From Candidatus Woesearchaeota archaeon (GTDB taxonomy: Archaea > Nanobdellota > Nanobdellia > Woesearchaeales > SKIA01): DNA of 64,000 nucleotides. The position numbers and the translations under genes were made by a program. The first letter of the stretch is position 1. The number at the start of each line of letters is the position of its first letter. The stretch spans positions 32,001 to 96,000 of the forward strand of contig JBJKRI010000004.1 of NCBI GenBank assembly GCA_046704725.1, read 5' to 3'. Under the pieces are notes generated by a model. That model did not search any database. It was not told the origin of the DNA and was given only the letters and a program-made list of their open reading frames with translations. Positions 43,255 to 47,187 of this stretch are shown here, piece after piece.

Positions 43255-44906
43255 TGCGCGAACCAGAAGCGATTCTCCCTCATATCATCGCAGCGGACGA
43301 AACCGAAACGCTCGAACTGGTATAGACTGTCCGAAATGAAGTCGCGAGGCTCGATCGCGCCGTCCATCCAGGAACCGTCTGGCATATGGACCCGCGCGTC
43401 GTCCGCGTCGTCCGCGGGAAGCCATTGGACAATGCGACGTCTTTTCGCCTTGCGGAACTCCTCGATACTCTTGGAGACAAAGACCCAGGCGCCGTTCTCC
43501 CTACGAAAGTTATAGGCGTCCATGAGACGGAAGAGCACACCGTCCGCGTCCTCCAGGTCGTTTGCTGGAACGACCACCTTCGGTCCGGCGGCGAGCGAGC
43601 GGCCGCCCTTGCGCTCGGTGGGATGCAGGTCGAGCCTCACGGGGAATTCGGGAGCGCCCTCGATGACGATGTCCACCGGGTCGGGGATGAAGAACGCCCT
43701 GTCGGCGATGGGGTCGATGATCTCCCTGTTGAATGCCTCGATATTGCGGAAGTACTCGGCTTTGGAGACCTTCTTGTCCGTGGCGGAAAAGCCCATCTCC
43801 TCCGCCAGGCGCAAGAACGCCTCGGGCTGGAAACCCCTCCTGCGCAATGCGGGCAGGAACGGCAGGCGGATATCGTCCCAACCGCTGAACTTCCCCTCCT
43901 CGATGCTCTTTCTCGTCTCGGTGGTGGAAAGACGCAAGTCGGTGAAGTTGATGCGACCAACGTTGTAGACTTTTGGTATGGGCTTGTCGAAATAGCGGTA
44001 CATGAACTCCTGGCGCTTGGCGTTATCGGCGTGGTCCTTGGCGCGCAAGACATGCGTCATGCCCATCTCCATATCATCGACGGAGACGCTGAAATTCATG
44101 AGGGGCCAGACGCGATACTTCGTCCCTTGACGTGGATGGACAGACGTATTGATACGCAGCGCCGGCCAGTCGCGCATGGCAGGATTCTTGTGCGTGACGT
44201 CGGTCTTGATACGGACGACAGCGTCGCCGGGCTCGAAGTCCGTGAGCATCAACTGCCAGCGCTCGAGGTGCTGTGCTGGCGGGAGGTCCCTGCACGGGCA
44301 CGCCTCCTTGTTGTTGACCAGCTTCCGGAAAGAGTCGGAATCGCACGTGCACACATACGCCCAGCCTTCGGTGAGCATCCGTTCCGCATAACTGTAGTAG
44401 AGCTCCATACGGTCGGACTGCACATGGACTTCGTCGATGTTATCGTGGGTGTACCACTTCGCGTCGGCAGGGAGGAGCTCGTACGCCCCCTCATAGATAT
44501 TCTCCGGATTCGTATCGGCGATTCGCAGGATGAGCCTGCCGTCGTTGCGGACAGCGAGGAGATGATTGAGGCCGAGCGGATAGGTATGCCCGATGTGCAT
44601 CGGACCAGAGGGGCTGGGCTCGAAACGCACGACAGGCTTGGTCCCGAGGTCGAACGGGTCCATCTTCTCTCTCACAGGGGCGCCGGAGCCGCCGAGCTCC
44701 TCAAGGGCTGATGCTTGCTCTTCCGCGCTCAGCGCGTTCACCTCCGTAGCGATGCGCGCGAGGATCGGCTGGACCTCCTTGGCCTTGCCACGAAACTCGG
44801 GGAACTCGCGCATGACCGCGCCCATCACGGCGCCAGGATGGGCGTGGCCGTCGTGCTTTTGGGCGTTGTCGAGCAACGCCTTTCGCACGAAATCCTCGAT
44901 ATCCAT
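43248..44906 (-). CDS. gltX: Glutamyl-tRNA synthetase (archaeal type)
   Basis: RFEPSPSGPMHIGH, DTNP, AYVCTC, HPRQG...VWP..NF, GWDD.RLP, QFERFGF. Confidence 0.97.
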   Translation of the reverse strand: MDIEDFVRKALLDNAQKHDGHAHPGAVMGAVMREFPEFRGKAKEVQPILARIATEVNALSAEEQASALEELGGSGAPVREKMDPFDLGTKPVVRFEPSPSGPMHIGHTYPLGLNHLLAVRNDGRLILRIADTNPENIYEGAYELLPADAKWYTHDNIDEVHVQSDRMELYYSYAERMLTEGWAYVCTCDSDSFRKLVNNKEACPCRDLPPAQHLERWQLMLTDFEPGDAVVRIKTDVTHKNPAMRDWPALRINTSVHPRQGTKYRVWPLMNFSVSVDDMEMGMTHVLRAKDHADNAKRQEFMYRYFDKPIPKVYNVGRINFTDLRLSTTETRKSIEEGKFSGWDDIRLPFLPALRRRGFQPEAFLRLAEEMGFSATDKKVSKAEYFRNIEAFNREIIDPIADRAFFIPDPVDIVIEGAPEFPVRLDLHPTERKGGRSLAAGPKVVVPANDLEDADGVLFRLMDAYNFRRENGAWVFVSKSIEEFRKAKRRRIVQWLPADDADDARVHMPDGSWMDGAIEPRDFISDSLYQFERFGFVRCDDMRENRFWFAHQ

Positions 44907-44951
44907 GAACCCTGGTCACGCACGGTCCGCTTAAATGCTTTACCGCCAGAA

Positions 44952-45048
44952 TGGACTCGGCGGGAGTCGCACCCGCGGCCTCACCGTATTACGAGTCCAC
45001 TGTGGTGAACCTTGCGAACGGTGCGCTCTGCTACTGAGCTACGAGCCC
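44952..45048 (-). tRNA. tRNA-Ala(CGC) with a 25-nt intron at 37/38 (intron 44988-45012)
   Basis: Acceptor GGGCTCG/CGAGTCC-A with G3:U70; anticodon stem CACCG/CGGTG; intron hairpin GGTTCAC/GTGGACT with a relaxed BHB. Confidence 0.9.
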
Positions 45049-45812
45049 ATCACGTCTGCGAACATGCTTCCGTTTAAAAAGGCTCTGCCTTTCCACGGAG
45101 AGGTGAGCATGAGAAATTTTGACGCCTGTCTGCTGCTAACCCGTACGCGATAAAGCGGTTTGTTCTTGCCAACGGTCAGTTGAATAGAGGAATCTATGTC
45201 AAACTCTCGTAGGAGGTTCGCTAATTGATGCGCAAGACGTCTTGATGTCGTAGTGTAGATAATGCGGAGATAGATGTCCTTGTCCTTAAGAACTGCGCCA
45301 TCCGTGTCCAGAAAACCTTTTAGAAAGCCAATCTTGAATTCAGTTGAAATGCCGTCTTTCAAGCTCACACTGCAATGCTTCGCATGAGGGTCATAATCCA
45401 AGTAGTTGCTGAAGTAATTAAACACGTCCTTTGAGCGCGTTCGGAGCCGCAAAGCCACATCGCTTTGCATCAGGTTCCATCTCTTGCCGAAAAAAGTCTC
45501 AAATATGTTCTTGACGTAAGCAGCATAGTCGTGGGCGTCGCGCCCGAAATGAATGTTCGTATCGTACCCATACGACGTCTTGGCAAGATTCTGGCTTCCG
45601 TCACCTGCGAATATCCCGCAGATTTCTCCCTCAATCCGCGTCCCTTGAGGTGTGATGGATGGTGGAGCATAAGTGACTCCGCGCAGTTTCTTGAAATGAT
45701 AGTAGACTGATGATTTCGGCAGGTGAAGATCCCGAGAGATACGGTTGAGCGAATCTCCCCGCAGAGTCATCAGCTTAATCGCAGTAATCTCTTCTGTGCT
45801 CAAACGAGGCAT
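45039..45812 (-). CDS. Free-standing two-motif LAGLIDADG endonuclease with N-terminal HTH
   Basis: HTH SLNRISRDLHLPKSSVYYH; motifs EICGIFAGDGS and FLKGFLDTDG; lower GC than flanks; no intein splicing blocks. Confidence 0.88.
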   Translation of the reverse strand: MPRLSTEEITAIKLMTLRGDSLNRISRDLHLPKSSVYYHFKKLRGVTYAPPSITPQGTRIEGEICGIFAGDGSQNLAKTSYGYDTNIHFGRDAHDYAAYVKNIFETFFGKRWNLMQSDVALRLRTRSKDVFNYFSNYLDYDPHAKHCSVSLKDGISTEFKIGFLKGFLDTDGAVLKDKDIYLRIIYTTTSRRLAHQLANLLREFDIDSSIQLTVGKNKPLYRVRVSSRQASKFLMLTSPWKGRAFLNGSMFADVMGS

Positions 45813-45863
45813 GCATAGACTATGCATAAACTATTGATGTGCGTTTCGCGCCTGGATGTCCGG

Positions 45864-46169
45864 TCAGCGCAGGTCGTCAGGGCTGATATCGCCCTTCGCG
45901 AGCGCGATGAGCTTGTCCATATGCTCCTTGGACGGGGTGCCCGAAGCGCCGATCGGCTGGGGATAGCCAGGGCCGACGAGCACGAACGTCGGTACGCCGC
46001 GGACGCCGAACTCCATCGCTTTTTGCTGGCCCTCCGGCGTTGCCGCGGACATGTGCTTGAACTTCACGTCCTCCTTGTCGGGGAAGTAGCGCTGGGCGAA
46101 GGATTTCGCCGCGGGGCAGTACGGGCACGTCGGACTCGTGAACAGGAATGCTTGGACTGTGGATGTCAT
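45864..46169 (-). CDS. Thioredoxin/glutaredoxin-like protein
   Basis: FTSPTCPYCPAA...FGVRGVPT. Confidence 0.92.
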   Translation of the reverse strand: MTSTVQAFLFTSPTCPYCPAAKSFAQRYFPDKEDVKFKHMSAATPEGQQKAMEFGVRGVPTFVLVGPGYPQPIGASGTPSKEHMDKLIALAKGDISPDDLR

Positions 46170-46235: not shown

Positions 46236-46358
46236 TGCGGATGCCCGGACTTGAACCGGGGACCCCGACGTGTCTTATCGGTGCGGCGGTCATCGGCGCC
46301 GTCCTCATCGCTCAAACCTTTATGAGCGTCGTGCTCTAACCAACTGAGCTACATCCGC
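46236..46358 (-). tRNA. tRNA-Met(CAT), probably elongator, with a 49-nt intron (46272-46320)
   Basis: GCGGATG/CATCCGC-A acceptor, AGTTGGTTA D loop, CGACG-CTCATA|A-CGTCG anticodon arm, GGTTCAAGTCC T arm. Confidence 0.9.
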
Positions 46359-46393: not shown

Positions 46394-46846
46394 TTACTCC
46401 TGCCAGGCGGACAAGGAGCGCTCGACGAACGGCCTTATCGACCGCAGGAGCTCTTGCCACTCCTTGAGCGCTTCGGTGATGAAGGACGAATCGGCAGTAT
46501 CATCGTGATCGAGCTCGAGCAGCGTGGAGCGGCGCGACAAGCGCATGATGCGCGAGATGAGTTTCATGGCCTCATCTTTTTCCTCGTCGGAGAACTTGCC
46601 GCTCTCCTCGTACAGGACGAGGTTCTGGTCCCCTGGCAGGATGACGCTGTGCAGGTAGCCGGTCCAGTTGTCGCCGAACTGGACGATGCGACGGCGCACG
46701 AAACGCAGGGGGTTTGTGGAGATAAAGCCCTCATGCAGGACGGCGTCGCGCACTTCGAAGACCGCATCAAGATCATCCAAGGAAGGAAGGGAGAGGGCTT
46801 CCGCCATGTTCTCGTATGCGTCCTCGAAGTCGTCGAGCAGTTCCAC
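46394..46846 (-). CDS. Hypothetical protein (GTG start inferred directly after tRNA-Ala)
   Basis: ELLDDFEDAYENM...LPSLDDLDAVFEV...LRFVRRRI; the track's extension to 46888 lies inside the tRNA. Confidence 0.7.
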   Translation of the reverse strand: MELLDDFEDAYENMAEALSLPSLDDLDAVFEVRDAVLHEGFISTNPLRFVRRRIVQFGDNWTGYLHSVILPGDQNLVLYEESGKFSDEEKDEAMKLISRIMRLSRRSTLLELDHDDTADSSFITEALKEWQELLRSIRPFVERSLSAWQE

Positions 46847-46918
46847 TGGACTCGCCGGGAGTCGAACCCGGAGTCTCTCCTCAGCCAAAGGAGTGTACTA
46901 CCATTGTACCACGAGCCC
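46847..46918 (-). tRNA. tRNA-Ala(GGC)
   Basis: GGGCTCG/CGAGTCC-A with G3:U70; CTCCT-TTGGCTG-AGGAG; GGTTCGACTCC. Confidence 0.9.
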
Positions 46919-46959: not shown

Positions 46960-47187
46960 TTACAGGCCGCTCGTATCGAAGGCGAGGCGGATGTCGCGGG
47001 CCTTGACGGTCTTGCGGCCGCTGTGCTTGGCGATCTTGACCGCGGACTCGGAGATCTGGAGAGCGATGTCGGAGAGCTCTTGCGCCATGCGCTCCGCGCC
47101 AGAGGCGGAGATGCGCTTTGCTCCGATACCGGAGAGGATGCGTTCGACGGGCGCTACAGGAATGGGTGTCAGTGACTTTCGTGGCAT
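46960..47187 (-). CDS. Archaeal histone (HMf-type)
   Basis: IPVAPVERIL...GAKRISA...AVKIAKHSGRKTVKARDI. Confidence 0.93.
   Translation of the reverse strand: MPRKSLTPIPVAPVERILSGIGAKRISASGAERMAQELSDIALQISESAVKIAKHSGRKTVKARDIRLAFDTSGL

Follow-up and report, generated by a model that had tools for sequence, protein, structure and literature searches.

To our knowledge, homing endonucleases are thought to need the refuge of an intron or intein, or a phage life style. What, then, is a LAGLIDADG endonuclease gene doing on an archaeal chromosome, outside any intron or intein, with its last codons inside a tRNA-Ala gene? The question is raised by a locus in a 64,000-nucleotide (nt) stretch of a Candidatus Woesearchaeota genome (GCA_046704725.1, contig JBJKRI010000004.1, positions 32,001 to 96,000), which we call the window and to whose numbering positions refer unless a contig is named. 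The genome has a size of 1.18 Mb in 8 contigs, is 99.7% complete and has a GC content of 0.605. We read the locus, with a probability of about three in four, as a free-standing homing-endonuclease cassette of ~816 bp (~45049–45864) that belongs to a tRNA-Ala-specific clade and adjoins the 5' end of tRNA-Ala(CGC) in head-to-tail orientation, resembling the phage endonuclease SegB and not a domesticated regulator. The endonuclease open reading frame (ORF) and the tRNA gene are interlocked as follows.

45039–45812, minus strand: ORF of the homing endonuclease with helix-turn-helix (HTH) and LAGLIDADG domains, 257 amino acids (aa); an alternative ATG at 45827 would give 262 aa
45039–45048, minus strand: ORF/tRNA overlap of 10 nt (G GGC TCG TAG), in which the final codons and stop of the ORF are tRNA nt 1–10
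44952–45048, minus strand: intron-containing tRNA-Ala(CGC) with G3:U70; Rfam score 51.9 bits against a threshold of 29, called tRNA-Ala(cgc) by ARAGORN with introns allowed

The start at ATG 45812 was favoured by the stored gene call (257 aa) and by 'MPRL' N-termini in relatives. At its 3' end the ORF reads ATG GGC TCG TAG, and the stop codon at 45039–45041 is U8-A9-G10 of the tRNA, whose first nucleotide lies at 45048. With a thioredoxin-like gene on one side and the tRNA on the other, the ORF does not belong to an intein. An Rfam scan of the window detected four tRNAs but neither a group I intron nor any further RNA family, and the 25-nt intron of the tRNA is too small to contain the ORF, which is thus free-standing and not intron- or intein-encoded. 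The GC content was 0.447–0.497 over the ORF, compared to 0.57–0.66 in the flanks and 0.605 genome-wide, and the low-GC island comprised the ORF only. No direct repeats flanking the cassette were found in 44900–45950, in keeping with a free-standing homing endonuclease gene that leaves no target-site duplication or integrase/att structure. An original prediction, made from the window alone, had described the shared 10 nt, the lack of a surrounding intein or group I intron and the GC content below that of the flanks; the coordinates, the Rfam scan with the flanking genes, and the GC values agree with it on all three points.

The protein matched Pfam LAGLIDADG_3 (1.4e-14; 54.5 bits against a cut-off of 22.5), and its N-terminal HTH gave weak matches only (Pfam HTH_38 and NCBIfam Cbp1-HTH). 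In an alignment of 25 sequences with the window's protein as the reference row, 37 columns were invariant, including GIFAGDGSQ and DTDG, and the window's protein keeps all of them. Its domains are encoded at the following positions.

45681–45797, minus strand: N-terminal three-helix HTH domain, residues 6–44 (model helices 6–17, 22–29 and 33–44), followed by a lower-confidence linker
45594–45617, minus strand: LAGLIDADG motif 1, GIFAGDGS, with the first catalytic Asp (G66–Q74 invariant in the alignment)
45294–45317, minus strand: LAGLIDADG motif 2, GFLDTDGA, with the second catalytic Asp (D169, T170, D171 and G172 invariant)

Both acidic residues, which had been predicted to be intact, therefore stand in invariant columns of the 25-sequence alignment. 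An AlphaFold model based on this alignment (predicted local distance difference test 91.6) showed two alpha-beta-beta-alpha-beta-beta-alpha halves after the HTH and the linker. The best Foldseek match of the model was I-DmoI (E 4e-10, TM 0.75–0.79 on the target); intein endonucleases, I-SceI, I-Tsp061I and WhiA (ranks 39 and 45) ranked lower. I-DmoI was also the best match by sequence when the alignment profile was compared with the PDB (E 1.9e-4). By sequence and predicted fold, the protein looks like an intact single-chain LAGLIDADG nuclease of the I-DmoI type that has an HTH in addition. Its nearest match in a set of 5.8 billion proteins was 48% identical, and the gene itself was found in one contig only.

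The association with tRNA genes extends to the whole family. A wide scan of species-representative genomes with the alignment yielded 78 homologue loci, 74 of which were evaluable, and at 58 of these 74 a tRNA gene is present where the ORF ends. The arrangement is tandem at 47 docked loci (same strand, ORF running into the tRNA 5' end) and convergent at 11 (antisense into the tRNA 3' end). As a background, 22 of the 834 ORFs of at least 150 aa in the window's genome have a tRNA at −80 to +30 nt of the stop codon; four of the 22 are LAGLIDADG ORFs, which leaves 18/830 for all others. Because 58/74 homologue loci compare with 18/830 ordinary ORFs, the ORF/tRNA adjacency is beyond chance, and the survey of tRNA proximity that the original prediction had proposed came out in its favour. 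Most of the homologous ORFs lack their own stop codon and terminate at whichever in-frame stop comes first within the tRNA, giving overlaps of 10, 15 or 21–23 nt depending on the frame. Judging from this arrangement, such endonuclease genes seem to land regularly at the ends of tRNA genes.

The same pattern was observed within the window's own genome, which contains one intein-type copy of PF14528 and seven free-standing copies or fragments. Five free-standing LAGLIDADG ORFs, the window's included, run into tRNA genes. The other six free-standing copies and fragments are listed by contig.

C6:50139–51041, plus strand: free-standing LAGLIDADG ORF, running 10 nt into tRNA-Arg(CCT)
C8:56536–57471, minus strand: free-standing LAGLIDADG ORF, running 11 nt into an odd 106-nt tRNA
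C6:24135–25046, plus strand: free-standing LAGLIDADG ORF, convergent into tRNA-Tyr over 39 nt
C7:63551–64366, minus strand: free-standing LAGLIDADG ORF, reading through tRNA-Thr(GGU)
C3:184277–185275, minus strand: free-standing LAGLIDADG ORF with no tRNA, ending in the tRNA-5'-like GCGGCACGTAGTTAA
C5:232158–232520, plus strand: decayed LAGLIDADG fragment, ~400 nt 3' of tRNA-Leu(CAA)

Homologues of any kind were present in 20 of 61 related genomes. Four congeners had distant homologues only (24–38% identity), docked at other tRNAs, and no orthologue: the copies were at Pro-GGG in G004, at Ile-GAT in G002 and G003, and at Ser-GCT in G001, where the ORF is broken. The best same-genus match (38% identical) was likewise located at another tRNA. 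Had the gene been vertically inherited by all relatives, the prediction of a tRNA-targeted element would have been weakened; the homologues were instead found in 20/61 genomes and at different tRNAs.

Among the loci with at least 37% identity to the window's protein, 23 of 26 evaluable ones were at tRNA-Ala, mostly with the anticodon GGC and a few with CGC (ARAGORN mis-called the tRNAs of L040, L045 and L068; inspection by eye of G3:U70 and the anticodon loop identified them as Ala). In a quick maximum-likelihood tree of 70 rows, from which sequences with internal stops, those outside 170–420 aa and non-evaluable loci were excluded, the window's gene was placed in a 22-row clade (SH-like approximate likelihood ratio test 95) with 19 rows at tRNA-Ala. 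Other clades were associated with Tyr, Gly-CCC, Arg-UCG, Asp and Leu-UAA. The tRNA label changed 18 times on the tree, compared to 34.5 times on average, and never fewer than 30, in 200 shuffles; this shows that the labels cluster but not why, since related rows share labels. The Ala clade occurs in Woesearchaeota, Nanoarchaeia, Iainarchaeum and Aenigmatarchaeota. That it crosses host groups while the four congeners lack it argues against simple vertical descent. The Tyr clade is formed by distant homologues in candidate phyla radiation (CPR) bacteria with Saccharibacteria, Parcubacteria and Nomurabacteria labels (L090, L094, L095, L101, L102, L106, L109 and L110); it is well supported, and 8/8 of its members lie directly before tRNA-Tyr(GUA).

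Filled and empty alleles could be compared at one site, behind a class II aminoacyl-tRNA synthetase gene, for the carrier L046 (genome G061) together with relatives of this genome. G068 and G069, whose synthetases are 88% and 79% identical to that of G061 at the aa level, have empty alleles in which tRNA-Ala(GGC) begins at or just after the synthetase stop codon. In the filled alleles of G061 and G063, the cassette is inserted exactly between the synthetase stop codon and tRNA +1, and consists of a ~60-nt 5' block, its own TATA ~24 nt before the ATG, and the ORF. G063 and G069 are closely related around this site: their synthetases are 95% identical at the aa level (92% in the last 600 nt of DNA), a 764-nt downstream stretch is 91% identical and the tRNA-Met is identical at 75/75 positions. 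For tRNA-Ala, in contrast, the identity between the two is only 75%, and the gene of G063 is nearest to the tRNA-Ala of the carrier G061 (84%). Our reading of these identities is that the resident tRNA-Ala at the G063 site was probably overwritten along with the arrival of the cassette, as homing with co-conversion predicts. The G063 tRNA-Ala has insertions on both sides. Spacers of 224 nt (G070) and 448 nt (G067) were considered as decayed remnants and rejected, as they had no significant similarity to the endonuclease or the cassette ends. In the window, a histone gene (46960–47187, minus strand) is followed after 41 nt by tRNA-Ala(GGC) (46847–46918, minus strand) with no cassette, and the carriers L044, L045, L048 and L052 have a histone gene a short distance upstream of their endonuclease gene, which abuts tRNA-Ala(GGC). 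The window's histone/tRNA-Ala(GGC) junction is an unoccupied copy of a site that is usual for the clade.

How can a tRNA gene remain functional with a foreign ORF at its 5' end? The original prediction had placed the TATA box of the tRNA within the ORF, and the element found there is at the expected distance.

45073–45080, minus strand: tRNA-Ala TATA box TTTTTAAA, starting at −32, within the codons A-F-L-N of the ORF's C-terminal tail

In the window's genome, a TATA-like word starting at −42 to −26 was found for 31 of 46 tRNA calls (mode −31/−32) and in 33 of 5000 random windows, so the position at −32 fits the tRNA TATA positions of this genome. A TATA word within the coding sequence was also found in relatives. 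TTTWTAA starts at −42 to −32 from tRNA +1 in 15/20 tRNA-Ala-clade loci, compared to 1.4% (168/12306) of equal windows elsewhere in those ORFs. In every case it is the conserved C-terminal codons x-F-(I/L)-x that spell the word, which is retained even in L035 and L036, two carriers richer in GC. The last codons of the cassette thus contain a predicted TATA of the tRNA in most relatives.

The endonuclease gene has a putative promoter of its own at the other end of the cassette.

45857–45864, minus strand: ACCGGACA box at the cassette 5' end, sharing its first base with the end of the stop codon of the thioredoxin-like gene and lying 52 nt upstream of ATG 45812
45831–45838, minus strand: weak TATA-like stretch ATCAATAG, at the TATA spacing of box-bearing host genes and assigned by position only
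45811–45827, minus strand: perfect 8+1+8 palindrome ATGCATAG-T-CTATGCAT, spanning both candidate start codons

Of the 26 copies of the strict word CACTGGACA in the genome, 14 lie outside ORFs although the coding fraction is 0.89; control words gave 9/2, 1/0 and 3/1 (total/outside ORFs). A fixed layout of box, N14, TATA, N~21 and start was found before the genes for MCM, two Orc1/Cdc6 proteins, Hef, Hjc, a Cas4-like PD-(D/E)XK nuclease and a C5 DNA methylase, and, in the form ACCGGACA, before Nre. All six free-standing LAGLIDADG ORFs of the genome are preceded by the same layout. In the survey, the box was present upstream at 14 of 74 loci, including all six nearest relatives, and the reversed word at 0. 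The ACYGGACA or (C)ACTGGACA box is thus a candidate replication/repair regulon motif, of which we found no description in the literature covered. The shared layout leads us to infer co-regulation of the endonucleases with genes for replication and recombination. The start-codon palindrome possibly acts as an operator, and a conserved operator was rejected because that form occurred in 0/20 start regions of relatives. In four other carriers (L040, L044, L048 and L052), the endonuclease start is preceded by another conserved 5' block, ACTGCCAAAT...TTCGCTTAAAATTCTCTTTTT...hairpin...GGAGGT, with the Shine-Dalgarno-like GGAGGT located 6–8 nt before the ATG. Because of this different block, the cassette lineages appear to differ in their mode of expression.

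Together, these features suggest how the cassette may spread and persist. The enzyme would cut cassette-less tRNA-Ala alleles at or near the tRNA 5' border, and repair of the break from a carrier would copy the cassette together with the adjacent tRNA, an intronless form of homing with co-conversion whose expected pattern was seen in relatives. The insertion would be harmless to the host: the mature tRNA sequence is intact, the TATA at −32 could drive its transcription, and 5' processing would remove whatever lies upstream. Lacking a stop codon of its own, the ORF borrows U8-A9-G10 of the tRNA. Expression from a weak promoter with the ACYGGACA box could mean that the nuclease is made when the repair machinery is switched on, and cleavage of read-through mRNA by RNase P at tRNA +1 would remove the stop codon and so might keep nuclease levels low.

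Several observations weigh against parts of this interpretation. The window's codons equivalent to those that spell TTTWTAA in relatives are degenerate (TTT CTC ATG), and its TATA lies outside them. After the invariant Lys, the window's tail comprises 16 residues, compared to mostly 4–10 in relatives; because the TATA lies in this lineage-specific tail and matches the host tRNA promoter consensus, the ORF may simply have been extended over a resident tRNA promoter. The tail may have evolved here, or the cassette may have been inserted ahead of the resident promoter with a frame that stayed open to the tRNA. Three other tandem tRNAs linked to homing endonuclease genes in the genome have no recognisable TATA, so a promoter inside the ORF is not universal. 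Of the predicted supply of the tRNA promoter by the element, the location inside the ORF and the codons of 15/20 relatives hold up, and the window's own TATA may be a resident one. The linked tRNA also looks native. Its best full-length match, in a crude alignment, was tRNA-Ala(UGC) of its own genome (65/71 aligned positions); co-import of tRNA-Ala(CGC) is therefore not indicated here, and we rejected it. An empty allele of the window's locus was not found among the sequences searched; the same-genus gltX and trx loci of the congeners were not syntenic. A GltX query retrieved 37 metagenome gltX loci (best identity 36–54%), none with the endonuclease and a few with a divergent tRNA-Ala nearby. 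No relative closer than 48% was found, which leaves recent mobility of the window's copy conjectural. At the comparison site, G063 has an extra 798 nt 3' of tRNA-Ala that is absent in G069 and holds an AbiEii/DUF6036-like nucleotidyltransferase ORF (L054:3346–3843); because the replaced tract also holds this unrelated ORF, it may stem from more than one event. Finally, the contrast between filled and empty alleles could also be explained by precise losses.

Some of these points would also be expected if the gene had arrived by homing or transfer and become a stranded relic, immobile now and retained as 3' deletions would remove the promoter of tRNA-Ala(CGC), its intact ORF reflecting only a recent arrival. 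The closest relative at 48%, the single contig carrying the gene, the congeners' lack of a target allele without the endonuclease gene and the tRNA promoter inside the ORF all agree with this, as does the decayed fragment near tRNA-Leu(CAA), which shows that such copies decay. We nevertheless consider a relic unlikely, given that the ORF has retained its full length and all invariant residues, its GC content has not been ameliorated and its promoter box and layout are intact. An active cassette of the kind outlined above could alternatively depend on the tRNA intron, with the nuclease targeting the anticodon region of intron-less genes, the 25-nt intron protecting the carrier and gene and intron spreading jointly. 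The linked tRNA has an intron, as does about half of the clade's linked tRNA-Ala genes. About half of the latter are intronless by ARAGORN, however, and a few of these are overlong and may contain undetected inserts; moreover, filled G061 and G063 and their empty counterparts are all intronless, and the insertion point at tRNA +1 is at least 36 nt from the intron site. The tRNA intron is incidental to the association with the endonuclease, and we regard such collaborative homing as very improbable.

The original prediction had left a choice between a tRNA-targeted selfish element and a domesticated regulator of the tRNA locus. For the second, a DNA-binding protein similar to WhiA or HO that regulates the tRNA locus or its neighbours, one may cite the extra HTH domain, the palindrome at the gene's own start and the presence of WhiA among the weaker fold matches at ranks 39 and 45. 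A regulator would hardly be expected to have invariant catalytic Asp residues, a patchy distribution without an orthologue in four congeners, a foreign composition and clades that follow different tRNAs, and the empty alleles in relatives are evidently viable; we give this option slightly less credence still than collaborative homing and set it aside. Chance adjacency in a compact genome deserves mention as ORFs there often touch tRNA genes: 18/830 ordinary ORFs end at −80 to +30 nt of a tRNA, and G068 and G069, with their empty alleles, likewise have the upstream synthetase gene directly against the tRNA. With 58/74 homologue loci docked and the identity of the tRNA clade-specific, chance is refuted at the family level, and for the window its probability is negligible. 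The selfish, tRNA-targeted element is the part of the prediction that is favoured, by the patchy occurrence (20/61), the low GC content, the clades that track tRNAs (18 label changes against 30–37) and the empty and filled alleles, the latter being seen elsewhere and not at the window's locus.

Free-standing homing endonucleases and co-conversion of flanking markers are known from T-even phages. SegB of T4 is described as a free-standing GIY-YIG endonuclease encoded in the T4 tRNA gene cluster, with a site that includes a conserved tRNA motif, and as driving the inheritance of its gene along with the tRNA genes around it (PMC2330249). The window's gene is likewise a free-standing endonuclease gene among tRNA genes, and the co-inheritance described for SegB matches the co-replacement of tRNA-Ala in G063 compared to G069. 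It differs in being LAGLIDADG and not GIY-YIG and in residing on a cellular chromosome and not in a phage; SegB is not known to overlap a tRNA gene or to take its stop codon from one. Archaeal LAGLIDADG enzymes have been described from rRNA introns and inteins (PMC6125680). Like I-DmoI and I-Tsp061I, the window's protein has two LAGLIDADG motifs with both acidic residues in a single chain, and I-DmoI is its best match by fold and sequence. In contrast to these two, whose genes lie within rRNA introns, the window's gene is outside any intron or intein and outside its host RNA gene, and encodes an extra N-terminal HTH; the cassette relies on tRNA end-processing, whereas the hosts of I-DmoI and I-Tsp061I rely on splicing.

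Collaborative or trans homing has reportedly been observed for F-CphI beside the psbA intron and for T4 mobE with I-TevIII. These, too, are free-standing endonucleases that adjoin an interrupted host gene. Unlike for F-CphI and mobE, the intron is dispensable for the association here, with about half of the linked tRNA-Ala genes being intronless by ARAGORN. WhiA and yeast HO are domesticated LAGLIDADG proteins; WhiA is vertically conserved, has lost the catalytic residues and has a C-terminal HTH. The window's protein shares with WhiA and HO the combination of a LAGLIDADG scaffold and an HTH-type DNA-binding domain, and differs from WhiA in keeping the catalytic residues, in its N-terminal HTH and in its patchy distribution. 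In the literature covered, to which subscription journals do not belong, we found no cellular LAGLIDADG family that docks family-wide on tRNA ends with borrowed stops, embedded promoters, clade-specific tRNAs and overwriting of tRNA genes. New here are the tRNA-Ala clade, the statistic on the codon-embedded TATA, the replacement of the tRNA between G063 and G069 and the genome-wide test of the shared box.

A broader proposal may be put forward, which we hold tentatively and with rather less than even confidence. In ultra-small archaea and CPR bacteria, the LAGLIDADG gene and its docked tRNA might form a composite mobile unit that overwrites resident tRNA genes and drives their turnover, including new variants or isoacceptors such as tRNA-Ala(CGC), which seems to be missing from the four congeners. 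In such a unit end-processing would take the place of splicing, a substitute tRNA promoter would be carried in the last codons, and expression would be wired to the replication/recombination regulon via the ACTGGACA box. Irrespective of this broader proposal, parking exactly at a tRNA gene border would be a third way of persisting in a cellular lineage, besides intron or intein refuge and phage life style, in which RNA processing takes the harm out of the insertion and a conserved tRNA serves as a lasting target. If the homing mechanism outlined above holds, the replacement of tRNA genes and their horizontal spread in DPANN and CPR genomes would have a concrete driver. The mechanism would also account for many of the 'hypothetical' ORFs that overlap tRNA genes in these metagenome-assembled genomes, and warn annotators that such overlaps can be real. 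Specificity studies would gain many natural LAGLIDADG enzymes whose targets, the 5' or 3' borders of tRNA genes, can be predicted, and Woesearchaeota, a group without a cultured model, would obtain a candidate replication/repair regulon motif.

The linked tRNA-Ala(CGC) was missed by ARAGORN at default settings and required the mode with introns allowed. Its 25-nt intron lies beside the anticodon (~44988–45012, with the borders set by eye from the mature loop UUCGCAA), and the cloverleaf arms were kept in the minimum free energy fold. The D-loop is short and lacks the usual GG (AGUAGCA), the T-loop reads UGCGACU with G in place of the usual U55, and the Rfam score of 51.9 bits is the lowest among the window's four tRNAs. 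Three patterns found no tRNA-Ala(CGC) in the four congeners G001–G004, and a DNA search with this tRNA as the query returned nothing useful. The window's tRNA-Met (46236–46358, minus strand) also contains an intron and was missed by ARAGORN in default mode. Pfam gave no hit for a 164-aa ORF at 46394–46888 (minus strand); the TTG listed as its start overlaps tRNA-Ala(GGC), and the true start is probably further in.

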